A stretch of 26,851 nucleotides of DNA from a virus (taxonomy: Duplodnaviria; Heunggongvirae; Uroviricota; Caudoviricetes): the IMG/VR virus record IMGVR_UViG_2802429248_000006, positions 1 through 26,851 of that record; one strand, given 5' to 3'. The notes beneath the pieces are model-generated. The model did no database searches. It saw nothing but the letters and a program-made list of their open reading frames with translations, and was not told the DNA's origin. Both the position numbers and the translations under genes were made by a program. Shown here piece after piece: positions 1 through 26,851 of the stretch (positions within the stretch are counted from its first letter, which is position 1; each line of letters begins with the position of its first letter).

Positions 1-12
1 GGTTTGGGAGAA
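1..12. other. Half of a gix/cix/hix-type invertase crossover site (GGTTTGGGAGAA), truncated by the window edge
   Basis: Positions 1-12 are the exact reverse complement of TTCTCCCAAACC at 1878-1889; core dinucleotide and other half-site would lie at positions <=0. Confidence 0.55.
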
Positions 13-3541: not shown

Positions 3542-4442
3542 CCGTTCCCCCGTTGGTCACGCTCCACTGCATACATGATGCCGCCTGCGTTTTGTTCAGG
3601 ACCACGTCCGCCTGCGGGGAAGCCAGTTCCACACGCTGAACACCCTCAACATGCAGCGCGGCAAAAATGGCGCTACGGCGAATATCCCGACCAAGCCGCG
3701 TCTGACTGGCAATGTACCTCTGCAGGCTGGCTTTTGCCGCTGCCATTACCGGCTCTGCTTCCGGTCCCGGATAGAGAAAAATGGTGGCTTCCACGCGGTA
3801 CGGGATGATTTCCGCGCTGCGAACCGTCAGACGGTCAGCCACCGGGCGGACATTCTCACTGTTCAGTGCTTTCTCCACCACATCCAGCAGGTTTTTTTCT
3901 GCTGTTCCGTCGCCTTCGCGGCTAAGGACTGTCAGCACCACCTCTGCAGGTGCCGGACTGGTTGCACTGGCATCCGCCACCCGACCGTCGGCGCTTCGGG
4001 CATGAAATTCATAAGCGGCAGTTGGTCCCGCAACTGAAAGCCCCTCAAAGGCTGCTGGCACACGCAGGCGTAACGCTTCATCGCTTTCCATCACTGCTGC
4101 AACGGGCGGCACAGCGTCATTATCAGCAGGCGTCACCGTCAGGCGTTTCACGTTGTAGTTGGCAGCGATCTGGTCAAGATCGCCGCCCATCGCGTAAGCC
4201 ACCATCACAGCCTGCGCGGCTTCGTTAATGCGCTGGCGCAGAAGCAACTCACGGTAAGCGTTCTCCTGCAGCAATTTGGTGACGGGTTCAGATTCCAGTT
4301 CCAGCGTGCGGATCACTGCTTCCTGCTCATCTTTCGGATGAAGCGCAACAAATTCGGCCTTGCGTTCGGCAAGCAGCGTCTCAAAGTCCGGCACATCCAC
4401 AATCTGCGGCGCAGGCAACTGCGAAAGGTCAATCACTGCCAT
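3534..4442 (-). CDS. J: Baseplate assembly protein J
   Basis: ORF 3534..4481; start refined to the ATG (cat at 4440-4442) giving MAVIDLSQL...; P2 J-like length (~302 aa) and position. Confidence 0.9.
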   Translation of the reverse strand: MAVIDLSQLPAPQIVDVPDFETLLAERKAEFVALHPKDEQEAVIRTLELESEPVTKLLQENAYRELLLRQRINEAAQAVMVAYAMGGDLDQIAANYNVKRLTVTPADNDAVPPVAAVMESDEALRLRVPAAFEGLSVAGPTAAYEFHARSADGRVADASATSPAPAEVVLTVLSREGDGTAEKNLLDVVEKALNSENVRPVADRLTVRSAEIIPYRVEATIFLYPGPEAEPVMAAAKASLQRYIASQTRLGRDIRRSAIFAALHVEGVQRVELASPQADVVLNKTQAASCMQWSVTNGGTDE

Positions 4443-4788
4443 TCTCTGCTCCTGTTGATACGGAAAGGGAAACAGGCACACCGTTATTACGCCGCCCGCT
4501 CAGCGCCACCACCATTGAACCGTCAAAATTGCTGTTGATGGTGATGGAATCCAGCGTCAGCCGTGGCTCCCAGCGACTCAGCGCCACATACACTGCCGAC
4601 ATGATCTGCAGGCGTAATGCCGGATTTTGTGGCTGGTCTATCAGTGTCGACAGCAGGGAACCATATTCACGACGGGCAATGCGGCTACCCTGCGGTGTCA
4701 GTAGAATGTCCCGCACCGACTGACGCAGATGGTCAATATCAGTAATGACTTTGCCGCTGGTATTGTTCATCCCACTATAAAGCGTCAT
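4429..4788 (-). CDS. W: Baseplate protein W (gp25-like)
   Basis: 119-aa ORF between V and J, overlapping both; matches P2 W size and position. Confidence 0.85.
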   Translation of the reverse strand: MTLYSGMNNTSGKVITDIDHLRQSVRDILLTPQGSRIARREYGSLLSTLIDQPQNPALRLQIMSAVYVALSRWEPRLTLDSITINSNFDGSMVVALSGRRNNGVPVSLSVSTGAENGSD

Positions 4789-5878: not shown

Positions 5879-6323
5879 GTTTCACCGTCCACATTTCTTC
5901 AGGTTCATCGGGTTCTGCTACAGCTTCAACGCTCGACACACTGCCGTCAGTACTGACCAGCACACGTTCCGTCAGTTGCAGGTTAAGGCTGATATCACAG
6001 ACATCGTTGCGCAAAATATCCACCTCAAAGGTGAATAGCTTTTCCCGTAACGCCGGGTTATTGATGGCATCGGGCTGGTTATCCCGAAGCCACAGTAAAA
6101 CCGGGGCCATCAGCAGATTCTGGTCGCCGCTGAAATCCTCTATCACCACGTTCAGGGTATAGCGGTACTCCCATGACATGGAGCTGGCCCCCGTGGCAAC
6201 CAGCGAACCGTTATCCACAAACAGATGCAGTTTGTCCGGGTTATTGCGGACATAAGGCACCGCTTTATTGAGGGCGTGGCGCAGGGATTGTGGTTTGTTC
6301 ACTGTTTCGCTCCTGACACGCAA
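5871..6323 (-). CDS. R: Tail completion protein R
   Basis: 150-aa ORF in P2 R position, overlapping the S start. Confidence 0.8.
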   Translation of the reverse strand: MRVRSETVNKPQSLRHALNKAVPYVRNNPDKLHLFVDNGSLVATGASSMSWEYRYTLNVVIEDFSGDQNLLMAPVLLWLRDNQPDAINNPALREKLFTFEVDILRNDVCDISLNLQLTERVLVSTDGSVSSVEAVAEPDEPEEMWTVKRG

Positions 6324-6555
6324 TAATCATGTCCACTTTGTCTGCACAGACCGTCCAGGCGGCCTCCGTTTCATCCAGCAACGCGTTCAGGTCACCGTTA
6401 GTGCGCGGCGCTGCCTGCCCCAGCCGACACGGCGTCACTCGCGGACAACCACTGACGGTAAGCTGCACCTCCGGTGAGTGCCGGACGTTCCCGCAGCCGG
6501 ATAATGTCAGCAGGCAAAGGAGTATCAGCCCAGCGGCGTAAATCCTCGTTCTCAC
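6265..6555 (-). CDS. lysC: Outer-membrane lipoprotein spanin (LysC / Rz1-like), overlapping lysB out of frame
   Basis: 96-aa ORF with N-terminal signal peptide and lipobox (LLTLSGC); overlaps the 3' part of lysB in another frame. Confidence 0.65.
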   Translation of the reverse strand: MRTRIYAAGLILLCLLTLSGCGNVRHSPEVQLTVSGCPRVTPCRLGQAAPRTNGDLNALLDETEAAWTVCADKVDMIIACQERNSEQTTIPAPRPQ

Positions 6556-6826
6556 GTTTCAGTTCCTCGATCCGGCGTTGTCGTTGTCTCAGCTGTGCGC
6601 TGGTCTGTTCTGCTTCGGCATAGAGCCGCGCCTGCTCCCGGTTATTGGTTTCAGTCAGAATGGACAGGCTGATAAGCTGGCTGTTGCTCTTTGCCAGTGC
6701 CTGGCTTTTGCTCTGCAGCTCGTCTGCCTGCGTGCTGATGGTCTGGCTGGCATCAGCCAGCCGCCACGTCTGCCAGCCCAGCGCCGCCAGTAATAACGCC
6801 AGCACAACCAGCAGCAACCGGTTCAT
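6398..6826 (-). CDS. lysB: Inner-membrane spanin (LysB / Rz-like)
   Basis: 142-aa ORF with N-terminal transmembrane segment and coiled-coil-like charged region; P2 lysB position. Confidence 0.75.
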   Translation of the reverse strand: MNRLLLVVLALLLAALGWQTWRLADASQTISTQADELQSKSQALAKSNSQLISLSILTETNNREQARLYAEAEQTSAQLRQRQRRIEELKRENEDLRRWADTPLPADIIRLRERPALTGGAAYRQWLSASDAVSAGAGSAAH

Positions 6827-7200
6827 GCTGCTACCTGTTGCGCCATCTGATTACGGGTGATCCAGAAGGCAATAACGGTCAGTAGATAAAAGACCAGGGT
6901 AATAGCCCACCCCGTCCAGGCGAGACTTACAACAATCAGCAATCGCATCACCCAACTGGTAAATACGTTTTCTTTTCGGGTAATTGTCTTCAGCAAAGAT
7001 GCCCTTAACTCCTGCCAGAGCGGGCCATTCTTAATTAACGCAGCCAGTGCTACCGGAATTACCGCCCATGTCAGCAAACAGGCTACCCAAACGCCGGACG
7101 CTGCCAGTACCGGAAAAATCCCCTGCGGATACACCATTGCTGCGATTAACAGCGCCATCCATAACATCAGAAACAGTCCGCTGATTAATTTCTTTTTCAT
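6823..7200 (-). CDS. lysA: LysA, multi-pass membrane lysis-timing protein
   Basis: ORF 6823..7272 trimmed to the ATG giving MKKKLISGLFLMLWMALL...; several hydrophobic helices; follows the endolysin as in P2. Confidence 0.7.
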   Translation of the reverse strand: MKKKLISGLFLMLWMALLIAAMVYPQGIFPVLAASGVWVACLLTWAVIPVALAALIKNGPLWQELRASLLKTITRKENVFTSWVMRLLIVVSLAWTGWAITLVFYLLTVIAFWITRNQMAQQVAA

Positions 7201-7201
7201 T

Positions 7202-7714
7202 TCAGTTTGCTCCCTGTAAACACCAGGCCATCTCCCGCGCACGGCGGTTATCCAGCCCCTGATTAAAAACACCTTTCACATAAACCCAGCGCGGCAACTG
7301 TCGGCACGCATCTGCCCAGCGCCGCTGATTGAGTAATTTCACCAGCGTGGAACTGCAGGCATTGCCCGTTCCCACGTTGAAGGCAAACGACACCGCAGCG
7401 TCATACACCTTCTGCGGCGGCTGTTGCTTCACACACCTTTCCAGCGCCCGCTCGACACGCAGCACGTTGGAGATCAGCCCTTCTGCTGCCTGTCGCTCCG
7501 TAATGGTTTTGCCGGGAATGACGCCTGACGTATTACCAATGCCGTCGGTCCAAACACCCGCGCTGCACTGATACGGCTGCAGACGACAACCTTCGTAATC
7601 GGCAATCAGTTTCAGCCCCTCCACGGAGGTGTGAAGCTGCTGAAAACCCGGCAGCGTGGCAGCAATAGCCAGCACGGCCCCGACAAGGCAGCGTTTAACG
7701 ATTGATGGATTCAT
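7202..7714 (-). CDS. K: Endolysin (lysozyme family) with N-terminal signal-anchor-release (SAR)-type hydrophobic segment
   Basis: 170-aa ORF; hydrophobic N-terminus (VKRCLVGAVLAIAATLPGF) followed by a catalytic-like EGLKL...DGIGNTSG region; P2 K position. Confidence 0.85.
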   Translation of the reverse strand: MNPSIVKRCLVGAVLAIAATLPGFQQLHTSVEGLKLIADYEGCRLQPYQCSAGVWTDGIGNTSGVIPGKTITERQAAEGLISNVLRVERALERCVKQQPPQKVYDAAVSFAFNVGTGNACSSTLVKLLNQRRWADACRQLPRWVYVKGVFNQGLDNRRAREMAWCLQGAN

Positions 7715-7910
7715 AGTCCTCCCGCGAGATCTGCCCGTCGCGCAGAAGCTGGTAGGCTTTGTGTTTGTAGTACCAGTTGATAGCCAGCATCAGCACACCA
7801 ATCATCAGGCCGCCCAGCGTTGAGGCATCCTTGATGGACAAATCGCCCAGCCAGGCCAGCACGACGGCGATGCAATACGTGATAAAGGCGCTGATTCGCT
7901 CAAGCGTCAT
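7695..7910 (-). CDS. Y: Holin
   Basis: 71-aa protein with two hydrophobic helices and a charged C-terminus, immediately upstream of and overlapping the endolysin. Confidence 0.75.
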   Translation of the reverse strand: MTLERISAFITYCIAVVLAWLGDLSIKDASTLGGLMIGVLMLAINWYYKHKAYQLLRDGQISREDYESINR

Positions 7911-13148: not shown

Positions 13149-14176
13149 TGGGAAAGAGTAAGAAAAACCGCACTGCGGCGACGAATCAGATCCAGCATAA
13201 AAACCAAACTTCAGCCGAAGCATTCAGCTTCGGCGATCCCGTTCCTGTTCTGGACCGCCGAGAATTACTGGACTATGTGGAATGCGTACAGATGGACCGT
13301 TGGTATGAGCCGCCCGTCAGCTTTGACGGACTGGCGCGCACCTTCCGCGCTGCCGTGCATCACAGTTCCCCGATTGCAGTAAAGTGCAACATTCTGACCA
13401 GTACCTATATCCCTCATCCTCTGCTCAGCCAGCAGGCTTTTTCGCGTTTTGTGCAGGACTATCTGGTATTTGGCAACGCCTATCTGGAGAAACGCACGAA
13501 CCGCTTCGGTGAAGTGATCGCCCTTGAACCTGCGCTGGCAAAATACACCCGACGCGGATTAGACCTGGATACCTACTGGTTTGTGCAATACGGTATGACA
13601 ACCCAGCCGTATCAGTTCACGAAAGGCAGTATTTTTCATCTGATGGAACCGGACATCAACCAGGAGATCTACGGCCTGCCCGGTTATCTTTCTGCCATTC
13701 CGTCAGCCCTGCTCAACGAGTCCGCCACGTTGTTCCGCCGTAAGTATTACATCAACGGCAGCCATGCAGGCTTCATCATGTACATGACCGATGCCGCGCA
13801 GAATCAGGAGGACGTGAACAACCTCCGCAACGCGATGAAAAGCGCCAAAGGACCGGGTAACTTCCGCAACCTGTTTATGTACTCGCCTAACGGCAAAAAG
13901 GACGGGCTTCAGATTATCCCGTTGTCAGAGGTCGCGGCGAAGGATGAGTTTCTGAATATCAAAAATGTCAGCCGCGATGACATGATGGCTGCGCACCGCG
14001 TGCCGCCGCAAATGATGGGGATTATGCCTAATAATGTTGGGGGGTTTGGGGATGCGGAGAAAGCTAGCCGGGTATTTGTTCGCAACGAATTAATTCCTCT
14101 CCAGAAGAGACTGCAGGAACTGAATGAATGGCTAGATGATGAAGTCATAACCTTTAAAAGGTATAGTCTCGATTAA
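13145..14176 (+). CDS. Q: Portal protein Q
   Basis: 343-aa ORF overlapping the P stop; P2 Q-like; the final ~50 codons drop in GC. Confidence 0.9.
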   Translation: MMGKSKKNRTAATNQIQHKNQTSAEAFSFGDPVPVLDRRELLDYVECVQMDRWYEPPVSFDGLARTFRAAVHHSSPIAVKCNILTSTYIPHPLLSQQAFSRFVQDYLVFGNAYLEKRTNRFGEVIALEPALAKYTRRGLDLDTYWFVQYGMTTQPYQFTKGSIFHLMEPDINQEIYGLPGYLSAIPSALLNESATLFRRKYYINGSHAGFIMYMTDAAQNQEDVNNLRNAMKSAKGPGNFRNLFMYSPNGKKDGLQIIPLSEVAAKDEFLNIKNVSRDDMMAAHRVPPQMMGIMPNNVGGFGDAEKASRVFVRNELIPLQKRLQELNEWLDDEVITFKRYSLD

Positions 14177-14184
14177 ACTAAAAT

Positions 14185-14209
14185 AATGGCTGGCGAAGGT
14201 CCAGCCATT
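14185..14209. terminator. Hairpin between convergent Q and the cargo gene (bidirectional terminator candidate)
   Basis: AATGGCTGG-cgaaggt-CCAGCCATT: 9-bp stem, 7-nt loop, A/T flanks, in the 38-bp gap between two convergent stop codons. Confidence 0.5.
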
Positions 14210-14214
14210 AAATG

Positions 14215-15318
14215 TTAATCTTGCTCAGGCTCATAACGTGGTTCAATACTGCCAAAATTAACATATTTAATAACCGACGTTAACTCTATATCCTCAGCGT
14301 CCATATTATCATAATTCCTATCGAAATCATTAAATATGGTAAAGATCACACTGGTAGTATCATCAACTTCTGTAAACTCCGTTGTAGCAGCCAAGTAAAC
14401 ATTATCTTTATCTATAGAATCGTAATGATAAAAATTAAATTCACACTCAGCATTATATGTTACTGTGACTTTAATCTCAAAAGTCGCATAATCTTGACTA
14501 ACATCTATAACATTAATAGAAGGTTCAAACTCAACGTCTGATACATAACAATAGTTAGCCTCCGGCTCAAAACTAAGGTAGGAATCAGCCTCTGCCATAA
14601 AACTCACATCATCATAACGGCTAATAACTACACTTCTAATAGAGTCCAATAGGGTAATAGATTTTCCAGCCTCTATATCGAGCATTAAACGCTGAGCAAA
14701 CTCATATGGAGCTGTTCTAGGTTGAAAGTGCGTTAATGCTTCGCCTAAATCCTGAATGCAGGTTACATAATCTGAACCACTACAGTATTCAATCCATCCC
14801 TGGTCTCTTGAAATTGCTATTATTTTTTTATGAGATTTTTTAGCATAAGCCTCAATTGCAAATAGAACTGTTGCATCTGGAAACTCCTCCTTCCTTTTCT
14901 TTCTATCAGCGAAGGGCGGAGTTAAATTAAAATAAGCATCAAATACTTCATCAAGTGTTGTATAGTCACTACACTTAATTTCAACCGCACCACATTTTTT
15001 CAAATATTCTTCTATCCTTGAAGAGGCCAACGCATCAGAACTGACCATTTGTATAGAGTTTTCAAAAATAGATTCAGTCTCTTTGCTGGTTAGCAAAGAA
15101 TGTATCAGTGCATCTTTAAGAGATTTATCCAGTGCATCTTGTGATTCTTTAATTTTTTTTGATAGATGACTTTGCACTTCATTTTTCACGATGTCAGGCA
15201 TAAGAAAATCCACTTGGCTATGACAAAACTGCTTCATCCGTGCAAGCATACCTTCGTTAAAACGCCAGTGATAATTATCAATAGTTTGTGTATCTAAAAC
15301 TATAGCATCGTATGACAC
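14215..15318 (-). CDS. Hypothetical cargo protein, 367 aa; N-terminal PIN-like nuclease-type fold suspected, C-terminal acidic beta-rich domain of unknown function
   Basis: Long intact ORF with GTG start and an AAGGAG Shine-Dalgarno; visibly AT-rich against the GC-rich flanks; N-terminus AIVLDTQTI plus later acidic residues (E47, PDATVL, SRDQGW) resemble a PIN-like pattern. Confidence 0.6.
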   Translation of the reverse strand: MSYDAIVLDTQTIDNYHWRFNEGMLARMKQFCHSQVDFLMPDIVKNEVQSHLSKKIKESQDALDKSLKDALIHSLLTSKETESIFENSIQMVSSDALASSRIEEYLKKCGAVEIKCSDYTTLDEVFDAYFNLTPPFADRKKRKEEFPDATVLFAIEAYAKKSHKKIIAISRDQGWIEYCSGSDYVTCIQDLGEALTHFQPRTAPYEFAQRLMLDIEAGKSITLLDSIRSVVISRYDDVSFMAEADSYLSFEPEANYCYVSDVEFEPSINVIDVSQDYATFEIKVTVTYNAECEFNFYHYDSIDKDNVYLAATTEFTEVDDTTSVIFTIFNDFDRNYDNMDAEDIELTSVIKYVNFGSIEPRYEPEQD

Positions 15319-15435
15319 AAGCTCGCTCCTTCTTCTTTAATGCACAACAGAGTGTTCTACAAAATCATCTAAGATGAAAGTTGTAAACCTAACCGTCTAT
15401 GTCTGCAAGTTTTCTTTTTTTCCTCTCAGCGCGCG

Positions 15436-15454
15436 CTCGTATCCCCGCCACGCC
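15436..15454 (-). other. Putative cos (cohesive-end) site
   Basis: Minus strand reads GGCGTGGCGGGGATACGAG; the first 13 nt match my recollection of the 186/P2 cos 19-mer; lies between the A side and the Q side as expected. Confidence 0.4.
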
Positions 15455-15495
15455 TGCCCGCTTTATGTAGTGGTTTTCATGCACCTGCATGATCT

Positions 15496-15523
15496 ACGCA
15501 AAAGCCCGCCAGTTCTGGCGGGC
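15496..15523 (-). terminator. Rho-independent terminator for the minus-strand SOS/early transcript
   Basis: GC-rich stem GCCCGCCAG/CTGGCGGGC followed on the minus strand by a short T-tract (TTTTGCG). Confidence 0.5.
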
Positions 15524-15658
15524 CTTAGCAAAAACGATCCTCAAACGATCATGCGATCTCATGCGGCATAGACATGCACTACAGAGCTAACGCCTCGCAA
15601 GGGCTGGTTGTTCAACCTTGCTGACGCCAGAAGCAAGTTCAGACGCCAGCAACGTTTC

Positions 15659-15891
15659 TTAATGCAGCCAGCTGTCGTCTTCCCACACCTTCTGCATAAT
15701 TTTCATCACTTGTTTTCTTTCTTCGTCCAGTTGCAGTCCGGTTAGTTCCACACCGTTAGAGCTACCTTTGCGAATGCGAATTACCGTTTTGGATACAGGG
15801 GGCGCAGATTGCGGTAAAGCTCGGATTCAAGGGCGTCCAGGGTAGACTGGCTAATCTTCTGCTCTTTATCGATCATTATTTCAATGCGCAT
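15659..15891 (-). pseudogene. dinI: DinI-like gene interrupted by a 1-nt frameshift in an A4 run
   Basis: N-terminal 29 aa MRIEIMIDKEQKISQSTLDALESELYRNL resemble DinI; reading stops after RPLYPKR, but the -1 frame continues ...VIRIRKGSSNGVELTGLQLDEERKQVMKIMQKVWEDDSWLH, matching the DinI C-terminus; shift point is the A-run at ~15787-15790. Confidence 0.65.
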
Positions 15892-15901
15892 AAAAGTCAC
15901 C

Positions 15902-16090
15902 TCAGCTGATGACATCCATTGAGCGGTTGTATTCGTGGGTTCTGATTTTTGCCATGAGTTCATCTGTTAGTTCAGAAACCCACTGCAGAGCCAGCCCCTT
16001 CTCTTCATCACTACACTCACTAGCCGCTACAAGCTTAAGAAAAAAATCAATGCGCTGGAGCTTCAAAGACTCCAAAAAATAGTCCTGCAT
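15902..16090 (-). CDS. Small SOS-regulated protein (62 aa), possible Tum-like antirepressor N-terminal module
   Basis: ORF 15902..16192 trimmed to the internal ATG preceded by AGGAGGAAAG; sits directly downstream of the LexA box and upstream of the DinI-like gene. Confidence 0.45.
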   Translation of the reverse strand: MQDYFLESLKLQRIDFFLKLVAASECSDEEKGLALQWVSELTDELMAKIRTHEYNRSMDVIS

Positions 16091-16132
16091 CTTTCCTCCT
16101 ATGACACCACAAGAAATACTGTATGTATAACC

Positions 16133-16151
16133 ACTGTTTATATTTACAGTA
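16133..16151 (-). promoter_or_regulatory. LexA box (SOS operator)
   Basis: aCTGTttatatttACAGta fits CTGT-N8-ACAG with an AT-rich spacer; located just upstream of the small ORF and overlapping an AT-rich promoter-like region. Confidence 0.7.
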
Positions 16152-16243
16152 TATAATAATCTTACTGATGTAAAACGTTTTTTTACGTTCATCAGCCTGA
16201 TATGCCTGGTATTATTAAGAGCACGAATTGTTAATCCGCGTAA

Positions 16244-18685
16244 TTAATACAGGTTCCGCCACTTATCATCTTCCCGCAAACGCTGGTTCCGATAGAAGAT
16301 ACGCAAGCCTGCTCCTGACGGAATACTGCCGCCGCGAAGGAGTAAATCGACCTCTTTCTCGCTACCATCAAATCCTCTGGACTTCAGCTCATAGACGAGC
16401 TGCTGTCGCTGATGATCTGTAATTCGCTGTTTGTAGTCTTTACGCCGTTTCGGTTTCACCAGGCGTAACCTTGCTGCCAGTTCCCGGCGCTCTTTTTTGC
16501 TCATACTGTGCAGATAATCGTGCAACTCCTTGTCATCCATGCGGGTAATATCCGTTCTGGTGTCCCCATCAGCTGATTTATCTTTCTCCTGTTGGTTCAA
16601 ATTTTCAGCAAGGGGACAGTTATTGCCACGAGTCCAAGGGGCGCAAGCGCCCTGGTCGGCTGCCGCCTCCTGAACGTCAACGGCCTTACGAACCATTTTC
16701 CACTTCACGGCATGAGTGCAGATCTTGCCCTCTGCAATGGGTGACCAGATGCCATAAATACGAATGCCGTGATCGCCATAGGCGGTCGGCTCTTCGTTAA
16801 TTTCATAAGCGGTTCTGATGAGGTGATATTTGCGGGGAACCAGTACGCCGCCCTGCTTCATGATGTAGGTGGCAAAACAACCAGCATCAGCAGCAGCCAG
16901 GATGGCATCAAGGCGCGGGTTATCCAGTACCGGCGCACCTGCTTTTTTGTCGCCCTGTTGCCTTGCCGCCTGACCAGCCAGCAATCGCAGTTCACGGTAA
17001 GCCTGACGCCCCGGAATGCCAAAGAAGCGGAATTGCTGAACACGATGCAGAGACGCCCAGGCATTAACGTATTCAGCGTTATCACGCAGGGATTTACCCG
17101 TTTCCTTGCTGATCTCGCCAGCCAGACCACGCCCGTCAATGTTCTTACTGATGTATTTCGCGATGTAGCTTGTTGGCGTACCTTTGCGCGGGTTTATCAG
17201 CTCAGACTTAAAGCGTGGTCCCGTGTTATTACCCAGCTCCTCGCGGTCTTCACGAATGGCAAACTTACGCAACAAAGCAGTAATGGCGCGGCGATCTTTT
17301 TTGCGCATAAAACACAACAGGTGCCAGTGAACTGTACCGTCATGATGCGGCTCAGCCACCCGCACGCCATACCAGCGCAATCCGGCTTTGTGCATCGCCT
17401 TACGAAATGCAGCAAACATGCCGACCAGATAATCACTGCTTTGTCTTACCGTCGCATTTGTCCAGGTCGGGTTGGGCCTGCCGTTATTTAGCGTGGAATG
17501 GAAACGTGACGGACAGGTGATGGTGTAGAAAACGGCGCAGTCACTGCGCATTTCCGCGATAAGCTCCAGACCTTTAACACAGGCCATCATCTCATTGCGG
17601 CGATGCGCCGGGTTGCTGCTGCTGGCGTTTACCACATCTTCCATATCCAGCGTGTCGCCGTTTTCGTTCACCAGTTCATGAGAACGGAAAAACTCCAGCG
17701 ACTTACGGCGCTGCTCACGTTTATGCATCACGGCTTCATAGCTGACATAGGGAGATGCTTTTTTGCTGACCAGGCAGACAGCACGCAACTGCTCTTCCCG
17801 CCATTCGCAGCGCATCTTCCATAATTTCCGATACCACCAGTCGGCACACAACATACGCGCCAGCGAACCCGGAATGAGTTCATAGGGCACGGGTTTGCGA
17901 CGCTTTCTTTTCCGACGAAGTTGCTCAAACGCAGGCGGGATAACATCCAGTCGCAGGGTTTCCGCTGCCACCTTTTCCCATGTCTTGCGGATTTCTTCTG
18001 GCTTAACATCATCGGTGGCGTACAAATCACCACAAGCGGCATCAAGGCACATGCTCATATGCGCAGCTACCAGGGTGGACAGGCGTTTCACCTGATCCTG
18101 ACTCATTTCAGGCAGGATCAGCAGGCCGTCCAGCCCTTCATGGCTCGCCATAAAGCGAAAAGAAGTGGATAGCTGACTGTCGCGTACATGCTCCAGCCGT
18201 TCCAGACATGGCTTAATCGTCTCACGCAAATAGCGGGAATAAGCCTTTGGCCTGCCCAGGCTGCTGAAGTATTCAATACGTTGCATCAGCGGCTTGCTGA
18301 TATGGGAAGGCTGGGCGTTAACGTCCGCCAGAATGACCATGTCCGGATTAAAACGCTGCTGCTCATGCGCCAGCTTTGCCCGGCTAATGAGCTTATCCTG
18401 CTCCATTTCGCGTTGGACAGGATCACGGGATTCATTAAAGAAATAACGCTCCCAGACCTGATCACTCAGTGCCTCGCGGCGCACTTGTTCCTGCTCGTTA
18501 TCGGCAGCGTACAGAGTGATCAGGTTTGAAAGCGCAGAAACCGGCGCAACTTCCGCCGGGTCCAGATAAGGGTTAATGGCTTTCTTAGGTAAATTCCACG
18601 AATAACCCCCGGCAGAATTCTCAATGCTACCGGAAGTTACACTGACAAATGGATCGGCAAGACGGCCTGTGCTGATCTCTGTCAC
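16244..18685 (-). CDS. A: Replication initiation protein A (rolling-circle HUH endonuclease)
   Basis: 813-aa ORF with P2 A-type motifs ([25 protein letters not shown]); GTG start overlaps the upstream stop (GTGA). Confidence 0.9.
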
Positions 18686-19692
18686 TCACAGACTCCTGCA
18701 TATACACTGCTGCACACCGCTTTATCATTCATGCCTGCCAGCAGGTCAAACTGCATACCGCCCCGAGTCGTTAAGGCCCAGTCCCGATAAGTTTCAATGC
18801 CATAAGCATCAACAGTTATGACTTCGATCCGTTTTTCATCACGGCGCGGATCATGCGTGGATGGAAAGAACGTTGAATTGCCACGTCTTGAACATTCCGC
18901 AACCAGTCTTTCCCACTCAGCCACTCGGCGGATTTCTTCTGGCCAGCGTTGGAAAATCTCAGCAAGTTCTGACTTGCGAGCATGAATACATGGCATACAA
19001 CCGACACGACTGCATCCCTGCATATAAAGGGGGTTAGGCTTAATGCCATGACGTTTGGCAATAGCAAACACATCCTCATGCAGCCAATTAAGGATCGGAC
19101 GATAAACATGCAGGCCCAGAGTATTGTCTGCATCGTCCTCCCACTCAGGCAACAATGCACGTTCCGGTGATTCCTGCCCCCGGACTCCTTGCCAGCTGAT
19201 TACCTCATCGTATTCATCCAGAGCCGGATCGATTACCTGTGTACGTATTGGTTCATGTTTCAGTTCAAAAGTGCAGAAACGAGCTTTTGTTGAAGGGAAG
19301 CGACCTTTCCACATGCACAAATCAAGAAACGGAACGCCGGTTGGTTTAAGGATTTCCAGTGCCCGGTAAATACGTTCCTCAGCCTCATCTGTCGACATAC
19401 CACATTCCTCAACGAGAGAAATGGGCCACTTTTCCGCAATGAATTTACGTTTCCCTTCTATCTGGCGTGTGAAATCCGCTTTGACGCGAATAATCTTGCC
19501 CAGCTTTGATTCCAGATAATCCAGATATTCTATTGTCTGTGGATGTTCATGACCCGTATCGGCAAATACAGAAATATGCGGAACATCGTTTTCAATGGCT
19601 CTTAACCATTGAGCGAGACTATCTTTGCCACCAGAAGTAGTGATGATGTTAATGGTGCTTGAGGCAAAGCAACGCGGATCGATAGCATTCAT
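18682..19692 (-). CDS. PAPS-reductase / DndC-like PP-loop ATP pyrophosphatase family protein
   Basis: 336-aa ORF with PP-loop motif (TSGGKDS) and a C-terminal cysteine cluster (CSRVGCMPC); ATG overlaps the Dam stop (ATGA). Confidence 0.75.
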
Positions 19693-20537
19693 GCGCGTAC
19701 CTCAACGGTACGGTCAGAGCCGCTGGCAAAATCGACACCAAACCACCCAGCTGATTTGGTGGCAATGATTTCTGTTGCAGATTTACTCTCGCCAGCTGAC
19801 ACGCCAATGCTGCGTTTTGACTTGATGTAGTGGTGAGTGAAATTGCGATACAGCGAACGGATCAGGGATGTGTCACTGTTAGAAACAATGACCGGATGAC
19901 CTTCAGATGATCGATGTTCAAGAACGGATGCCAGGTGATACTGGTCATCTTCAGTGAAGCCATCAGTGTGATAGCCGGAAAACGTACCGTCATAAGGCGG
20001 ATCGCAATACACCACATCCCCCACCTTCAACATCGCCAGCGTTTCATCAAAGCTGGCGCAGATAAACGTTGCCTGCTGGGCTTTCTCTGCAAATGCGCGA
20101 ATTTCTTTTTCAGGGAAATACGGATTTTTATAATTACCGTAGGGAATGTTGAAATACCCGCTCTTGTTATAGCGACATAACCCACGGTAACCATGACGAT
20201 TGAGATACAGAAAATATACCGCTTTTATGAAATCAGTAATTTCAGTGGAGTAATTAAACTCCTGCCTTATGTTGTAATAAGCCACCTCCCTGTTTGCTTC
20301 CTCAAATAAAGCTCTGGCACGAGATATAAACGCCTCACAATCAGCAGCAACCTTTTTATAGAGGTTGATTAAATCAGGATTAATATCCGCAACAAGATAG
20401 CTGGGGTAATCCGTCTCCATCATCACTGCACAGGAACCCGCGAAAGGTTCAACCAGTCGCGGGCCAGCAGGAAGATGCTTTTTCAGTTCGGACATTATGG
20501 CGGTTTTATTTCCCGCCCATTTCAGGATAGTGCTCAT
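19689..20537 (-). CDS. dam: DNA N6-adenine methyltransferase (Dam-like)
   Basis: ORF 19689..20597 trimmed to the ATG ([11 protein letters not shown]) behind a GGAGGTG Shine-Dalgarno; motif I (FAGSCAV) and motif IV (DPPY). Confidence 0.85.
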
Positions 20538-20761
20538 ACAGCACCTCCGTTGTAATGTTTGCCTTTCAGCTCTGCGATTTCCTGACAGGTAATGCAAAGC
20601 TGCACACCCGGAATGGCACGACGGCGTGCTGGCGGAATTGGCGCTTCACACTCAATGCAAAGCACACGAGACACGCCCGGTGTTTTGGCACGGGCAGCAC
20701 GAATATGGCGCTGGCGTTCTTCTTCAACGCGCTGCTGTACGAGATCCATTGCATCAGCCAT
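20534..20761 (-). CDS. TraR/DksA-type C4 zinc-finger protein
   Basis: 75-aa ORF with CxxC...CxxC (CIECE...CITCQ); stop overlaps the Dam start (ATGA). Confidence 0.7.
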   Translation of the reverse strand: MADAMDLVQQRVEEERQRHIRAARAKTPGVSRVLCIECEAPIPPARRRAIPGVQLCITCQEIAELKGKHYNGGAV

Positions 20762-22122: not shown

Positions 22123-22632
22123 TCACAGCAAACCAAATGAAGCACCGAGGCCAGTCACGGTATCAACTGCACTCGCCATCGCAGGGTTAGCCTGTAAACG
22201 GGCCTGCAATGAAACAGCAGCCAACGCCATCAGTCGTGTTATAGAGTTAATGCTGCTGATAGCATCACGACGGCCTGCACTGGTTTTTACATCGCCAGAT
22301 ACCGCGCCTGCAGCTACACGCCCGATCTCTGCTGTTGCACTCATGACGTAATGCGGCAGTTTCTCTTTTGCCACCTCATTAATCGGAACACATGGCAGGC
22401 AGTGAATCTGTGCCAGAAAACCATCTACCAGTGTTGAGTCTTCTGTCAGATCAGTAAGCAACCAAATTTCTGGTGCGGTTAATAAATGAGGTTGAGCTGG
22501 ATTCAGCTTGTTCCGCAGAATCTGCACATTCATACCTGCACGTTCTGCCAGTTGCACCAAGTTGTGGCGCAATGCAAATGCACGACAGGCTTCATCAAAA
22601 TGTGGATGTTTGGAAACTTGGTAATCAAACAT
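22123..22632 (-). CDS. cII: 186 CII-like transcriptional regulator
   Basis: ORF trimmed to [19 protein letters not shown]...; N-terminal HTH-like segment ([16 protein letters not shown]); second gene of the rightward early operon as in 186. Confidence 0.65.
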
Positions 22633-22664
22633 AGTCGACACTCCTGATGCATCCCAAAATGGAA

Positions 22665-22886
22665 CTAGTTGAATACAACATTGCAATCAGTAAGTGCATC
22701 AACGGTAAGAGCAGCAAGGTTGATCATTACCTTTTCTCTTTTCTTGTCTTTCCGAAGTCGATGGCGAGGGATACGACCATCAGCCAGCATATCGTTGATG
22801 GTGTCGATAGAAAGACCAGTAAGTTCGCTATAACGCTCAATTGTGACGTGTGGCGTATTCAGAGTTATTGAAATGTTAGGGGTCAT
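22665..22886 (-). CDS. apl: Apl/Cox-like excisionase-repressor
   Basis: 73-aa HTH protein ([24 protein letters not shown]), first gene of the early operon, divergent from cI. Confidence 0.65.
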
Positions 22887-22973: not shown

Positions 22974-23912
22974 ATGTCAACTCAAAAAATCACATTTCGC
23001 CATATTGAAGATAGTCTGAAAGCTATGGTCATGCAGAATCGTGGAGGGCAAAAAGTCATTGAGAGGATACTCAAGGCCTATGGTTTCAAATCACGCCAAG
23101 CCTTCTGTAAGCATCTTGGTATTTCACAAAGCACAATGGCTAATAGATATGCACGCGATACCTTCCCTGCTGATTGGGTTGTTATATGTTCAATGGAAAC
23201 TGGCGCATCCCTAGAATGGCTGGCCTTTGGTTCTAACAATGCAGAAGAAAGTTTCCCCCCTTATGTGGAACAACATGATGAAACAGTCCCACATGAGGGG
23301 TTTAACAGCAACGCTCATCAATCATCCTTTAAGCGCCGCATTGAGAATCACATTGAGCTTACTAACGGAGGAAAAGCCGCGATAGAGAGGATTGTTAATG
23401 CTTACGGGTTTAAAACCCGCCAAGCCTTAGCCGACCACCTTGGTATTTCAAAAAGCACATTAGCCACACGATACATGCGAGATTCTTTCCCTGCGGATTG
23501 GGTGATTAAATGCGCATTAGAAACCAAAGCGGATCTCGCCTGGCTAGTTACAGGAATCGAAACACCAAATAGTTCACAAGAAGAAAACACTGTAATTTTA
23601 AATAAGTTCAATTTAGTCAATGGCGTGCTTGTCGAGTCAGGTTTTTTATCCATGGATCGGTGTCTACTTCCGAAGCAAGAAACTAGCAGCTTGATGTTTG
23701 TAAGCAATGGAGAAAAACATGTCATATGTGATAAAGAATTTCACCTAATTAGAGATGGAAAATGGTTAGTAGGAATTGACAATGAGTTATCTTTAAAAGA
23801 GTTAACTCGTTTACCTAAGAACAAAATTCTTGTTTCTGGTGGGAGTAAGGATTTTGAGTGTTCCATTGAGGATATTCAAATTATAGCCAGCATTATCTTA
23901 ACAATACAATAA
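22974..23912 (+). CDS. cI: CI-like immunity repressor with two tandem N-terminal HTH domains
   Basis: 312-aa ORF; residues ~27-95 and ~130-200 are clear paralogous copies (ERILKAYGFKSRQAF...FPADWVVICSMETGASLEWL vs ERIVNAYGFKTRQAL...FPADWVIKCALETKADLAWL), resembling the 186 CI N-terminal domain as I recall it. Confidence 0.7.
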   Translation: MSTQKITFRHIEDSLKAMVMQNRGGQKVIERILKAYGFKSRQAFCKHLGISQSTMANRYARDTFPADWVVICSMETGASLEWLAFGSNNAEESFPPYVEQHDETVPHEGFNSNAHQSSFKRRIENHIELTNGGKAAIERIVNAYGFKTRQALADHLGISKSTLATRYMRDSFPADWVIKCALETKADLAWLVTGIETPNSSQEENTVILNKFNLVNGVLVESGFLSMDRCLLPKQETSSLMFVSNGEKHVICDKEFHLIRDGKWLVGIDNELSLKELTRLPKNKILVSGGSKDFECSIEDIQIIASIILTIQ

Positions 23913-23955
23913 CATTGCAGACATTACTTTTAAATACTTACTGGAGGAGTCTAAA

Positions 23956-25725
23956 ATGAATCATCATCTTTCAAAGATTTCTATAAAAAACTTTAGATCT
24001 TGCAAAGATATTGATATCAATTTTTCTTCATTCACGCCTTTAATCGGTTACAACAATGCTGGTAAGTCAACGATTTTAAATGCTATTGAATGGCTTTTTA
24101 AGAAAAAACTTTTGTCCTCTGATGATTATACTAATCCAGATAACCCTATAGAAGTTATAGGTACAGTTAAGGGTATTACTGAAGATATTTTGTCAGCTTT
24201 AACAGAAGAAAACAGAACTAGAATTTCACCCTACATTATTGATGGGGTATTGATATTTAAGCGTCAACAGCCTGTTGGTGCTCAAAGTGCAAAAGACGTC
24301 AGATTATTAATTAAAAACCCAGAAAATAACGAATTCAGGACATCACCAACGGGTATTGAGAATGCGATAAAAGCTTTATTTCCAGACCCAATACGTATAG
24401 GTGCAATGGAAAATGCAGCGGATGATTCTTCAAAATCAAAAACAGGAACTACAATAGGTAAGTTGCTGGCAGAATTGAGTTGCAAAATAGAAGAGAAGCA
24501 CACTCAAAGGATACTAAGCCATTTAAATGCCGTTAATAGAAGAATGACTGCAACCGGTAATAAACGAATATCGGACCTCAATGATATTGATGATTCAATA
24601 AGTAGTAAAGTTGCTGATTTCTTCCCTGGGATAAGTTTAAAACTACACTTCGAACTCCCTGACTTCAAGGATATATTTAAATCAGGGACTGTAAAAGTAT
24701 ATGAAGATTCATTTCCCGGCATTGCTCGTGACTGTTCTTCTTATGGTCATGGCACACAGCGTTCGATTCAGATGGCTCTAATAAGACATTTAGCTGATAT
24801 AACCAACGGTGATGATATTAAAACAACTACTCTACTGTTAATAGATGAACCTGAGTTATATCTTCACCCATTTGCTATCGAACAAATTAGAGAATCTCTA
24901 AAAACACTATCTCATCATGGATATCAAATAATTTTCTCTACCCATTCATCTCAAATGATTACCTCTGACTTAGCAAAAGACACTGTGTTAATCAGAAAAA
25001 ACAGTCAGCGTGGCACTCATTGCAGATTAACATTAAAAGAAGCAGTCAATAAAGTAATCGAACAACGACCAGCACAAGCAACCCATTTATTTTCATTAAC
25101 ACAGTCTTCAAAAGTTTTGTTTGCTAACAATGTAATACTAACAGAAGGTAAAACAGAGACTACTCTGCTCCCATTTATTTTTAACAAAGTTAAAAATAAA
25201 ACATTAGGTCAGATGCAAATAGCACTAATTGAAACAGGGTCCGTTGAAAGTATATCTAAAACGATGCAAATTCTAAATTCAATGGATATACCTACAAAAG
25301 CAATTGTTGATTTAGATTTTGCGTTCCGCGGTGCAATAAGGAACAACTTCTTAGAACATAATGACGAGGATATTTTACGACTAAAAGAAATCTTGAGAAG
25401 TATGCATGCTAATGGAGAATGCACTCTCGATGGATCCGGTTTGCCTACAAAGGGTAGTAACACTACCGCAGCTGAAGCATTTGCTATTATGTCTCAAAAG
25501 CCCGGCGCCAGAGAATTTTTGTCATCATTAGCCGCAAAACTGAGAAATGCAAATATTTGGATTTGGCTAAATGGTTCGATAGAAAACCATTTGGGTCTTA
25601 CAGAAAAAAATGAATCAGTATGGGCTGATTTCAAAACAAAAGCAGATACACAACCTCTTTCAGATATCTGTGCAGATTTCGAAAGTATTGAGGCTTTAGT
25701 CGACTGGATTACCCCTGACGTATGA
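23956..25725 (+). CDS. old: OLD-family ABC-ATPase / TOPRIM nuclease (P2 Old-like, class 1)
   Basis: 589-aa ORF with Walker A (GYNNAGKST), Walker B (LLLIDEPELYLHP), TOPRIM-type glutamate (VILTEGKTE) and DxD (VDLDFA); GGAGGAG Shine-Dalgarno; AT-rich. Confidence 0.85.
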   Translation: MNHHLSKISIKNFRSCKDIDINFSSFTPLIGYNNAGKSTILNAIEWLFKKKLLSSDDYTNPDNPIEVIGTVKGITEDILSALTEENRTRISPYIIDGVLIFKRQQPVGAQSAKDVRLLIKNPENNEFRTSPTGIENAIKALFPDPIRIGAMENAADDSSKSKTGTTIGKLLAELSCKIEEKHTQRILSHLNAVNRRMTATGNKRISDLNDIDDSISSKVADFFPGISLKLHFELPDFKDIFKSGTVKVYEDSFPGIARDCSSYGHGTQRSIQMALIRHLADITNGDDIKTTTLLLIDEPELYLHPFAIEQIRESLKTLSHHGYQIIFSTHSSQMITSDLAKDTVLIRKNSQRGTHCRLTLKEAVNKVIEQRPAQATHLFSLTQSSKVLFANNVILTEGKTETTLLPFIFNKVKNKTLGQMQIALIETGSVESISKTMQILNSMDIPTKAIVDLDFAFRGAIRNNFLEHNDEDILRLKEILRSMHANGECTLDGSGLPTKGSNTTAAEAFAIMSQKPGAREFLSSLAAKLRNANIWIWLNGSIENHLGLTEKNESVWADFKTKADTQPLSDICADFESIEALVDWITPDV

Positions 25726-25773
25726 TTTAATATTTACATACATTGACCACTGGTCAAACATACAGTTAAATTT

Positions 25774-25798
25774 AGCCCTCTGACATGAGGGCTTTTTT
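25774..25798 (+). terminator. Rho-independent terminator immediately upstream of the int start
   Basis: AGCCCTC-tgacat-GAGGGCT followed by TTTTTT; the int ATG starts at 25799. Confidence 0.6.
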
Positions 25799-26851
25799 AT
25801 GGCAGTACGAAAACTCACCACAGGAAAATGGCTTTGCGAATGTTACCCCGCCGGACGTAGTGGGCGTCGGGTGCGTAAACAATTCGCCACCAAAGGCGAA
25901 GCTCTGGCTTTTGAGCGCCACACGATGGAAGAAACCGAAGCAAAGCCCTGGCTGGGTGAATCAGTGGATCGTCGAACACTGAAAGACGTGGTTGAGCTAT
26001 GGTTCAAACTACATGGTAAATCTCTGACAGCTGGGCAGCATGTCTATGACAAATTGCTGTTGATGGTTGACGCTCTGGGCAATCCTCTTGCAACCGATCT
26101 CACCTCTAAAATGTTTGCCCACTATCGAGATAAACGCCTGACAGGCGAGATCTACTTCAGCGAGAAATGGAAGAAAGGAGCAAGCCCGGTCACCATTAAC
26201 CTGGAGCAAAGCTATCTAAGTAGTGTTTTTAGCGAACTATCCCGTCTGGGCGAATGGTCGTATCCGAACCCACTGGAGAACATGCGAAAATTCACCATCG
26301 CAGAAAAAGAGATGGCATGGCTTACCCATGAGCAGATTGTTGAATTGCTGGCTGATTGCAAACGTCAGGACCCAATTCTGGCACTGGTAGTTAAGATATG
26401 CTTAAGCACAGGCGCACGCTGGCGTGAAGCCGTAAATCTTACCCGCTCACAGGTGACCAAATACCGAATTACCTTTGTCAGAACGAAGGGGAAGAAAAAC
26501 AGAAGCATCCCTATCAGTAAAGAGCTTTACGAAGAGATCATGGCGCTTGATGGGTTCAATTTCTTTACAGACTGCTATTTTCAATTTTTATCCGTGATGG
26601 AAAAAACGTCTATCGTGCTCCCTCGCGGTCAACTCACACACGTTCTGCGCCATACGTTTGCGGCGCACTTCATGATGTCGGGTGGAAACATTCTCGCCTT
26701 ACAAAAAATTCTCGGACACCACGATATAAAAATGACTATGCGTTACGCACATCTGGCACCAGATCATCTGGAAACGGCGCTCCGTTTCAATCCTCTGGCA
26801 ACGCTGCCAAGTGGCGACAAAGTGGCGGCAGCGGTTGGCATTACCCCGTAA
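25799..26851 (+). CDS. int: Tyrosine integrase (P2/186 Int family)
   Basis: 350-aa ORF; N-terminus parallels P2 Int (MAVRKLTTGKW...RRVRKQFATKGEALAFERHT); C-terminal catalytic region (HVLRHTFAAHF...LGHHDIKMTMRYAHL); stop is the last codon of the window. Confidence 0.95.
   Translation: MAVRKLTTGKWLCECYPAGRSGRRVRKQFATKGEALAFERHTMEETEAKPWLGESVDRRTLKDVVELWFKLHGKSLTAGQHVYDKLLLMVDALGNPLATDLTSKMFAHYRDKRLTGEIYFSEKWKKGASPVTINLEQSYLSSVFSELSRLGEWSYPNPLENMRKFTIAEKEMAWLTHEQIVELLADCKRQDPILALVVKICLSTGARWREAVNLTRSQVTKYRITFVRTKGKKNRSIPISKELYEEIMALDGFNFFTDCYFQFLSVMEKTSIVLPRGQLTHVLRHTFAAHFMMSGGNILALQKILGHHDIKMTMRYAHLAPDHLETALRFNPLATLPSGDKVAAAVGITP

Follow-up and report, generated by a model that had tools for sequence, protein, structure and literature searches.

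Among prophage-borne nucleases of the Old type, that of phage P2 is the one studied in detail. P2 old was first recognized by its lysogenization phenotype in recB hosts (PMC7049728); exclusion of lambda-like phages, lethality in recB and recC hosts, and cleavage of tRNA anticodon stems are known only for P2 OLD (PMC12445682; PMC7049728; 10.64898/2026.07.10.737580), and tRNA-Thr(UGU) is one of the tRNAs so cleaved (PMC12445682; preprint 10.64898/2026.07.10.737580). Within class 1, Vc OLD nicks DNA independently of RecBCD, belongs to a different clade, and shares less than 25% identity with either P2 OLD or Ts OLD (PMC12392090); Ts OLD, the structural prototype of the class (6P74; 525 aa, mostly dimeric), cuts DNA in vitro (PMC7049728) and has neither a known defence role nor a prophage context. 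The same ATPase-TOPRIM fold is found in GajA of the Gabija system (class 2) and in the effector of retron Eco8 (class 3), each of which needs a partner, the GajB helicase in the former and a reverse transcriptase with msDNA in the latter. P2-related phages carry defence cargo in several intervals: a cI-integrase hotspot has been described in Vibrio K139-like phages (Rousset et al., 2022; PMC9122126), and the integrase-to-primase interval holds 8% of the defence systems in P2-like prophages of E. coli, Klebsiella, and Salmonella (NAR 2026, PMC13586616). The best-known E. coli P2 hotspot lies between gpA and gpQ, where P2 keeps old together with tin beside cos; old adjoins cosR, and a preliminary description of the present locus had placed it correctly.

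The window analysed here, the whole stretch of 26,851 nucleotides, belongs to a 186-like (Peduoviridae) E. coli prophage with its attachment site beside rcdA (RefSeq context), and it contains an Old-like gene between a 186-type cI repressor gene and the integrase gene int, all three on the same strand as the preliminary description had stated (Table 1). The Old-like gene is very probably a functional class 1 nuclease of the P2 Old type that rides in the cI-int interval as exchangeable defence cargo; its most likely function, by analogy with P2, would be abortive defence expressed in the lysogen. In contrast to P2, the gene occupies the cI-int slot and is not accompanied by tin, and the gpQ-gpA hotspot of the E. 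coli prophage is taken up by a PIN_12 protein instead of old. At the start of the window, no long inverted repeats were found in support of an invertible tail-fibre segment.

Table 1. Coordinates of the features of the cI-old-int region, with the basis of each call.
Feature	Position	Strand	Basis and remarks
CII gene	22123-22686	-	Divergent early lytic gene; Pfam Phage_CP76
Apl/Cox-like gene	22665-22886	-	Divergent early lytic gene; 186 layout as comparison
pR-like promoter, TTGACA-17-TATTCT	22980 to 22952	-	Promoter scan; overlaps cI start
cI repressor gene, 312 aa	22974-23912	+	Pfam Phage_CI_repr (two stretches, CI-type HTH) and Phage_CI_C; RefSeq 'phage repressor protein CI'
AT-rich (35% GC) exchanged block, CI C-terminal domain and old	23525-25731	+	blastn breakpoints 23524 and 25732/25720; GC; CI-domain identities
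Shine-Dalgarno, GGAGGAG	23943-23949	+	Read from sequence; 6 nt before old ATG
Old-like gene, 589 aa	23956-25725	+	ORF; predicted class 1 OLD-family nuclease (ABC ATPase with helical dimerisation insert, C-terminal TOPRIM)
Walker A/P-loop, GYNNAGKS, aa 31-38	24046-24069	+	Alignments; K37 = P2 K37
Walker B and D-loop, LLLIDEPELYLH, aa 293-304	24832-24867	+	Alignments; D297/E298, H304 = P2 D299/E300, H306
TOPRIM core, aa 388-454	25117-25317	+	Pfam PF20469; E397, K399, E401, D452, D454
Remaining active-site residues S541, E543, K551	25576-25608	+	Mapping to P2 OLD mutants of PMC7049728
int leader, conserved	25737-25798	+	Promoter-like TTGACC-18-TAAATT (25743-25772), hairpin AGCCCTC/GAGGGCT (25774-25793), T-run abutting int ATG
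Tyrosine integrase gene (int), 350 aa	25799-26851	+	Pfam Int_N and Phage_integrase; RefSeq context

Sequence comparisons confirm the predicted protein as a full-length homolog of P2 Old and a class 1 OLD-family ATPase-TOPRIM nuclease. In tblastn, 99% of the query aligned with P2 old at 36.9% identity (E = 7e-114), and identity ranged from 36.9 to 38% across the full length in the alignments overall; the two proteins are collinear and nearly equal in length (589 vs. 586 aa), within the class 1 range of about 500-600 aa (PMC12392090), yet about 62% of their residues differ. The PADLOC Old model was matched at positions 2-578 of 578 with 778 bits (E = 1.4e-234), above the 712 bits obtained for P2 Old itself; the runner-up profiles were AriA with 118 bits and GajA with at most 98 bits. 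Pfam matches included AAA_15 (5.5e-33), AAA_21, and OLD-like_TOPRIM (PF20469; aa 388-454, 1.5e-16). The AF2 model (pLDDT 85.9, pTM 0.77) places helices 166-197, 206-222, and 237-242 between the ATPase lobes, corresponding to the helical dimerisation insert, and its top Foldseek match in the PDB was Ts OLD (6P74; E = 1.7e-23, TM about 0.6), followed by GajA and retron Eco8. Domain order is shared with Ts OLD, which has only about 17% identity. Pfam, the Old model, the residue mapping, and the AF2 fold thus agree with the Walker A/B plus TOPRIM architecture that had been proposed from the sequence.

The residues on which P2 OLD depends are conserved. Mutation of K37, D299, H306, H332, E398, E402, D453, D455, E543, or K550 abolishes P2 OLD function (PMC7049728), and each of these ten has its counterpart in the Old-like protein, so that the canonical motifs had not been misread. 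An alignment of 17 sequences including P2 Old showed the ATPase residues K37, D297/E298, H304, and H330 (the H-loop histidine, aligned with P2 H332) as invariant, together with the metal A ligands E397/D452/D454, the metal B ligands E401/E543, and the basic residue K551; among 40 homologs, K37, D297, H304, and H330 were again invariant, and E298 was at least 90% conserved. A missing basic catalytic residue was suggested by a pairwise alignment that set Glu opposite P2 K550, and was rejected when the 17-sequence alignment, with a shifted gap, gave an invariant Lys at this position. The third metal-B position differs: S541 replaces the D541 of P2, as does S478 in Ts OLD, and most clade members have Ala; the substitution might alter catalysis. 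Resemblance to P2 extends to the auto-inhibitory tetramer interface defined by cryo-EM (L170, I177, F185, I192, L196, L229, and F231, with a clasp of F221/F222 and Y32/Y304; 10.64898/2026.07.10.737580). The matching residues of the Old-like protein (L171, I178, I186, V193, M197, L230, and F232, and F222/F223, Y32, and Y302) are, as far as the alignment indicates, identical or conservatively hydrophobic.

[quoted passage not shown] The other classes were considered and rejected: class 2 (Gabija-like) lacks its helicase here, class 3 (retron) lacks its reverse transcriptase and ncRNA (an Rfam scan of the whole window gave no match), and class 4 (PARIS-like) has split genes, whereas the ATPase and TOPRIM domains of the Old-like protein reside in one polypeptide; the scores of the respective profiles, GajA and Eco8 with at most 98 bits as well as AriA, fall far under that of the Old model.

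Within class 1, the end-to-end alignment, the Old-model score exceeding that of P2 OLD, and the conserved tetramer-lock residues identify P2 OLD as the nearest characterized relative. By analogy, the Old-like protein at rest would be an auto-inhibited tetramer, triggered by aberrant DNA arising from replication of an infecting phage or from its inactivation of RecBCD; the TOPRIM site would then cut an essential nucleic acid, translation would stop, and the infection would be aborted, which would protect the lysogen population together with the resident prophage. As a caveat, the family is functionally split, and at about 37% identity to P2 OLD the substrate and the trigger are therefore not readable from the sequence. 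Like the present protein, the anti-phage enzyme Vc OLD is a class 1 OLD encoded by one gene of a mobile element, with an integrase alongside; a mode of action like that of Vc OLD, in which invading phage DNA would be nicked or degraded directly and its replication blocked, independently of RecBCD and with neither tRNA cleavage nor suicide of the host, would fit the mechanistic diversity of class 1 enzymes (the Vc nickase, DNA cleavage by Ts OLD in vitro), the limited identity to P2 OLD, and the Ts-like Ser at the P2 D541 position. Against this, Vc OLD is itself remote from both P2 and Ts OLD, whereas the present protein shares with P2 OLD the three features that identify its nearest relative; we consider the Vc OLD-like mode unlikely, and favour a P2 Old-like abortive defence.

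Abortive defence of this kind presupposes expression in the lysogen, which is expected for P2 Old as well. In phage 186, the genes from cI to int form a lysogenic operon under the promoters pL and pE. The region studied here follows the 186 layout, with divergent early lytic genes and a pR-like promoter on the opposite strand (Table 1), and cI is presumably the first gene of a lysogenic transcript that also spans old. Since no terminator was predicted in the 43-nt gap between cI and old, co-transcription of the two genes in the lysogen, as the preliminary description had it, is a reasonable extrapolation from 186; a consensus scan upstream of cI found nothing convincing as a pL-type promoter, and the case for lysogenic transcription of old therefore draws on the 186 analogy. 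If old is transcribed with cI from equivalents of pL and pE, the protein would be present in lysogens, and most lysogenic transcripts would end at the hairpin of the int leader. The strong Shine-Dalgarno sequence that had been reported for old was found as described.

The preliminary description had credited old with a terminator of its own. A terminator-like hairpin followed by a T-run is indeed present, but aligning the regions upstream of int across prophages with differing cargo speaks against its being that of old: about 65 bp upstream of int are conserved in relatives that hold PD-Lambda-1 or other genes in the slot, and the hairpin with its T-run (25774-25798; fold z = -3.7), in which the 3' arm doubles as the ribosome-binding site of int, belongs to this leader whatever the cargo upstream. 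Since the hairpin is retained next to other cargo, in an integrase family of 1136 genomes of which 14 have old, it does not travel with old; judging from these alignments, the int leader is part of the prophage backbone rather than of an old cassette.

The gene is AT-rich, as had been noted; its GC content of 35.3% (GC3 25%) compares with 49% in int and 53-61% in the late genes. The accompanying proposal of a moron inserted into the immunity region fared less well. The AT-rich block, which differs from the closest relative and at whose edges blastn similarity to Klebsiella phage 4LV2017 and E. coli phage 813R9 breaks off, starts within cI at position 23525, and clean insertion of a self-contained unit is therefore not supported; old seems to have been inherited jointly with the CI C-terminal domain. 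Besides the terminator, which is not its own, a separate promoter for old was not detectable in a consensus scan: the only plus-strand promoter-like site near its start (23929-23957) overlaps the ATG with a 9/12 match, and the number of such sites in the region was at chance level (12 observed vs. 10.3 expected). In this respect the gene differs from P2 old, for which separate mRNA start sites have been mapped; both are nevertheless single-gene, AT-rich accessory cargo of Peduoviridae prophages. Base composition and the undetected promoter could also describe an inert passenger, a horizontally acquired gene that is non-functional or silenced (for example by H-NS, to which xenogeneic DNA of this composition is typically open), but such a fate is barely credible for a gene with an intact reading frame, a full set of conserved catalytic residues, a strong ribosome-binding site, and an unchanged context in four genera with orthologs down to 63% identity. 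A dN/dS of 0.07 against the Citrobacter orthologue shows that old is under strong purifying selection.

The cI-int interval is a recurrent hotspot for defence cargo in P2-related prophages. Comparison among sister prophages, which the preliminary description had proposed, showed conserved flanks and varying contents: Old, PD-Lambda-1, PDC-M11 A and B, unknown genes, or a 63-aa ORF alone, next to the same int, leader, and attachment site in every slot variant compared. The position of old, contrasted in the preliminary description with that in P2, is in this sense not an oddity; conserved core-gene flanks with swappable defence cargo are the pattern of the published P2-like prophage hotspots (PMC9122126; PMC13586616), although the cargo lies here in cI-int rather than between gpA and gpQ. 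A non-exhaustive literature search found no paper specifically describing 186-like coliphages with Old between cI and int. Of 5426 E. coli genomes, 1136 had the integrase family; 14 of these carry the Old-like gene, which is intact in each; the order cI-old-int recurs in prophages of Citrobacter, Klebsiella, and Serratia. More distant homologs occur outside prophages in many phyla, and among 80 homologs at no more than 54% identity in representative genomes none had CI or P2-like neighbors, which rules out cI and int as the customary neighbors of the wider family.

This distribution also bears on the suggestion that old serves the life cycle of the prophage itself and not exclusion, by addiction-like killing upon DNA-repair defects or prophage loss, or by DNA processing during lysogenization. 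Its place within the lysogeny module beside cI and int, the apparent co-inheritance with the CI C-terminal domain, and the recB phenotype by which P2 old was discovered would all accord with such a role; yet old must be dispensable for the life cycle, because most prophages of the same family do without it and fill the slot with unrelated cargo or the 63-aa ORF. Recognized defence systems among the alternative cargos, and distant homologs outside prophages, point in the same direction, and a role of this kind seems very improbable compared with defence of the lysogen.

The gene is called by standard defence-annotation tools, the hotspot concept is published, and current understanding is not overturned by the present locus. 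It represents a second prophage-borne Old-type lineage besides that of P2, the single well-studied example, and its different lineage, slot, and transcription unit make it a natural comparison for the generality of tRNA cleavage, the RecBCD link, and tetramer opening in P2 OLD. The cI-int interval is also a defence-cargo slot in a prophage family that is very widespread in E. coli (roughly a fifth of genomes), cargo being swapped through recombination inside cI and in the int leader. A more speculative proposal, to which we attach little confidence, couples defence to the lysis-lysogeny switch: production of Old would be confined to times of cI promoter activity, and induction, with the convergent lytic promoter overriding it as in 186, would shut Old off. 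If so, a sensor of replicating phage DNA would be kept from aborting the lytic replication of its own prophage, and the co-inherited CI C-terminal domain might be part of the same co-adapted module. In a Pf-like filamentous prophage of Pseudomonas aeruginosa, Old lies directly upstream of the integrase; under the same proposal, this arrangement in unrelated temperate phages (186-like in four enterobacterial genera, Pf-like in P. aeruginosa) would reflect selection for switch-coupled defence. Finally, three E. coli matches ended 3 nt early, for which a different integrase or attachment site was considered and rejected; the one that was examined differs in neither, int and the rcdA site being unchanged.

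The prophage studied here is a 186-like member of the P2 family, integrated beside rcdA in E. coli. As the preliminary description proposed, its OLD-family gene (old) lies on one strand between a CI-type repressor gene and the integrase gene int, with the Apl/Cox-like and CII genes divergent from this group; in phage 186 no gene separates cI from int, which share one base. The predicted protein combines an N-terminal ABC-type ATPase (Pfam AAA_15/AAA_21) with a C-terminal OLD-like TOPRIM domain (residues 388-454). It covers positions 2-578 of the 578 in the Old model of the defence-system profile set PADLOC (E = 1.4e-234, 778 bits), on which P2 Old itself scored 712 bits; the next-best families, AriA and GajA, reached at most 118 bits. 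The sole close match in phage genomes (tblastn) was P2 old, with 36.9% identity over 99% of the query (E = 7e-114), and the reading of an intact OLD ATPase-TOPRIM protein thus stands. P2 old adjoins cosR, as was stated earlier. Standard defence-annotation models already name the gene outright, and one RefSeq genome, 100% identical over the region, is annotated with CII, an Apl/Cox-like protein, "phage repressor protein CI", "ATP-dependent nuclease" and "phage integrase". Since no helicase, reverse transcriptase or ncRNA was found next to old, the gene belongs to class 1 by the criteria of the Chappie laboratory (PMC7049728, PMC12392090).

Features of the old region and of other prophage loci discussed in the text
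Feature	Position	Strand	Remarks
Tail-collar-domain fragment	4-480	+	beside tail-fibre gene
Tail-fibre-assembly genes	480-1082; 1054-1506	+; -	opposed orientations; beside tail-fibre gene
PIN_12-domain protein	14215-15318	-	367 aa; inside AT-rich stretch ~14000-16200
PAPS-reductase-domain protein and Dam-type N6-adenine methyltransferase	18682-20597	-	336 aa and 302 aa; upstream of replication gene A
CI-type repressor gene	22974-23912	+	upstream neighbour of old
old-like gene	23956-25725	+	uninterrupted ORF, 589 aa
Conserved int leader	25737-25798	+	promoter-like TTGACC-18-TAAATT, 7-bp GC-rich hairpin, T-run up to int ATG
Terminator-like hairpin	25774-25793	+	AGCCCTC/GAGGGCT plus T-run abutting int ATG; fold z = -3.7
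Tyrosine integrase gene	25799-26851	+	downstream neighbour of old

Mutation of any of the residues K37, D299, H306, H332, E398, D453, D455, E402, D541, E543 and K550 abolishes the function of P2 OLD (Schiltz et al., 2020, PMC7049728). Pairwise and multiple alignments placed counterparts in the window protein at K37, D297 (with E298), H304, H330, E397, D452, D454, E401, E543 and K551, and the Walker and TOPRIM residues had accordingly not been misread; the exception is P2 D541, which corresponds to Ser in the window protein, as in the Thermus scotoductus enzyme (Ts OLD; S478), and to Ala in most members of the same clade. The apparent loss of the basic catalytic residue, with Glu facing P2 K550 in the pairwise alignment, was rejected as a gap-placement artefact, because this column is an invariant Lys in a 17-sequence alignment. 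At the positions that lock the inactive P2 OLD tetramer, as named from cryo-EM (preprint 10.64898/2026.07.10.737580), the window protein has identical or conservative hydrophobic residues (Y32, L171, I178, I186, V193, M197, F222, F223, L230, F232, Y302). With 40 homologues as input, AlphaFold2 gave a model (pLDDT 85.9, pTM 0.77) that best matched the class 1 Ts OLD structure 6P74 (E = 1.7e-23), followed by GajA and the retron Eco8 effector; a PDB sequence search returned the same order.

The gene had been viewed as consistent with a moron inserted into the immunity region. A clean insertion between cI and int is contradicted by the repressor gene: homology with Klebsiella phage 4LV2017, the closest phage with the same repressor N-terminus, ends at 23524, within cI, and is found again from 25732 onwards. 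The GC content of the CI C-terminal domain (23525-23912) is 35%, as is that of old (35.3%, GC3 25%), which is indeed AT-rich compared to int (49%) and the late genes (53-61%). With the C-terminal CI domains of the Old-carrying Citrobacter and Klebsiella michiganensis prophages this domain shares 64% and 54% identity, respectively, but with that of 4LV2017 only 28%. Breakpoints, base composition and domain identities therefore define the exchanged unit as the CI C-terminal domain plus old; the exchange was probably made by recombination inside cI and the int leader. The 312-aa repressor contains two CI-type HTH domains in tandem (roughly residues 22-90 and 135-197), followed by a single CI C-terminal domain, whereas 186 CI has one HTH and 192 aa; tandem HTH domains also occur in 4LV2017 (313 aa) and in one K. 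michiganensis element (311 aa). The window CI is a mosaic: HTH1 shares 81% identity with 4LV2017, and the C-terminal domain 64% with a Citrobacter CI that has a single HTH.

The Shine-Dalgarno sequence attributed to old was found (GGAGGAG, 6 nt 5' of the ATG). No old-specific promoter was evident in a promoter scan, where promoter-like sites remained at chance level and a single 9/12 site overlapped the start codon; no terminator was predicted in the 43 nt that separate cI from old. The gene would thus appear to rely on the lysogenic transcript and not on a promoter of its own, which is new; also new is that old and the CI C-terminal domain appear to be linked. Selection for coupling Old to the lysogenic switch, so that it is turned off while the prophage itself replicates, is a speculative and improbable reading.

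The hairpin previously assigned to old as its own terminator recurs in prophages with other cargo. Approximately 65 bp 5' of int, taking in both the promoter-like sequence and the hairpin, are conserved both in prophages that carry PD-Lambda-1 and in those of Citrobacter and Klebsiella that carry Old; at the equivalent place in 4LV2017 there is a hairpin of different sequence, and the Serratia prophage keeps the promoter-like part and nothing more. Of 5426 complete E. coli genomes, 1136 encode an integrase of the family that has this leader, yet only 14 of the 1136 have this old gene; the sole Shine-Dalgarno-like sequence of int (GAGGG) lies within the 3' arm of the hairpin. Leader conservation, the far commoner integrase and the location of this ribosome-binding sequence identify the hairpin as part of a backbone int leader and not as old's own terminator, although transcripts arriving through the cargo would still end there. 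The leader points to a separate promoter for int and to attenuation or translational masking of this gene; it differs from phage 186, where cI and int are translationally coupled.

Comparison of the cI-int interval across prophages with the same int, leader and attachment site, as advocated in the preliminary description, revealed a defence hotspot with variable contents: Old, PD-Lambda-1 (DUF4041), the PDC-M11 candidate system (both A and B, with one further gene), an unknown 350-aa protein, or a 63-aa ORF alone. Approximate counts among the 5426 genomes were 1136 for the integrase family, 631 for the 63-aa filler, 164 for PD-Lambda-1, 14 for this Old and 7 for full PDC-M11, with presence inside the interval confirmed for sampled cases only. 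In E. coli C2 (NZ_CP010117.1; locus L098, positions 1967-4481 of that locus) the interval holds three genes, for an unknown 354-aa protein and PDC-M11 A and B; one member of this candidate system has an ASCH domain. Elsewhere (locus L095), an IS1 element lies between cI and the PD-Lambda-1 gene. The hotspot concept for such intervals is already published: a cI-integrase hotspot is known in Vibrio P2-related phages (Rousset et al., 2022, PMC9122126), and 8% of the defence systems found in P2-like prophages have been attributed to the integrase-to-primase interval (NAR 2026, PMC13586616).

New, in addition, is a separate Old lineage that is a stable resident of this interval in 186-like prophages of four enterobacterial genera. 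Orthologues with the same cI-old-int order occur in prophages of Citrobacter freundii (84% identity), K. michiganensis (77%) and Serratia (63%), and a further K. michiganensis element has a 53%-identical relative in this order; dN/dS between old and its Citrobacter orthologue is 0.07. Remoter homologues (<=54% identity) are spread across many phyla, and none of 80 sampled had CI or P2-like neighbours. This distribution, together with the 186-like orthologues, indicates a broad Old clade that was captured by temperate phages and maintained in the 186-like lineage. In P. aeruginosa (contig JBNTER010000021.1; locus L093, positions 6001-7761 of that locus), a 54%-identical homologue directly precedes the integrase gene of a Pf-like filamentous prophage that encodes Zot; placement just before int is thus shared by an unrelated temperate phage type.

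It is established that the protein belongs to the OLD family, keeps its motifs intact, is under purifying selection and is encoded between cI and int in an interval that behaves as a hotspot; it is probably a lysogen-expressed, Old-type anti-phage nuclease. Given this function, a P2-like tRNase and RecBCD-linked mechanism is slightly favoured, with P2 OLD as the model (PMC12445682; preprint 10.64898/2026.07.10.737580). By analogy with phage 186, the lysogenic promoters would drive old together with cI, yielding protein in lysogens; as in P2 OLD, this protein may rest as an auto-inhibited tetramer until triggered by aberrant DNA structures, for example those that build up when RecBCD is inactive, or ssDNA hairpins at the origin of a replicating phage, and would then cut tRNA anticodon stems, leading to translation arrest and abortive infection. 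Substrate and trigger are the weakest steps; the Vibrio cholerae enzyme (Vc OLD), also class 1, is a RecBCD-independent DNA nickase, but it is much more distant, with less than 25% identity to P2 and Ts OLD (PMC12392090).

The old-carrying prophages are themselves mosaic, since the prophage of strain OkiPb01716 matches the old region at 100% and has a Dam and DUF3850 gene set in place of the PAPS-reductase and methyltransferase genes. The layout of the tail-fibre region resembles that of alternative or invertible tail-fibre cassettes, but a search for long inverted repeats gave none. Between portal gene Q and replication gene A, at the canonical defence hotspot of P2 and the site of P2's own old and tin, the window encodes the PIN_12-domain protein, which is without PADLOC or PHROG match and is a candidate uncharacterised defence gene.
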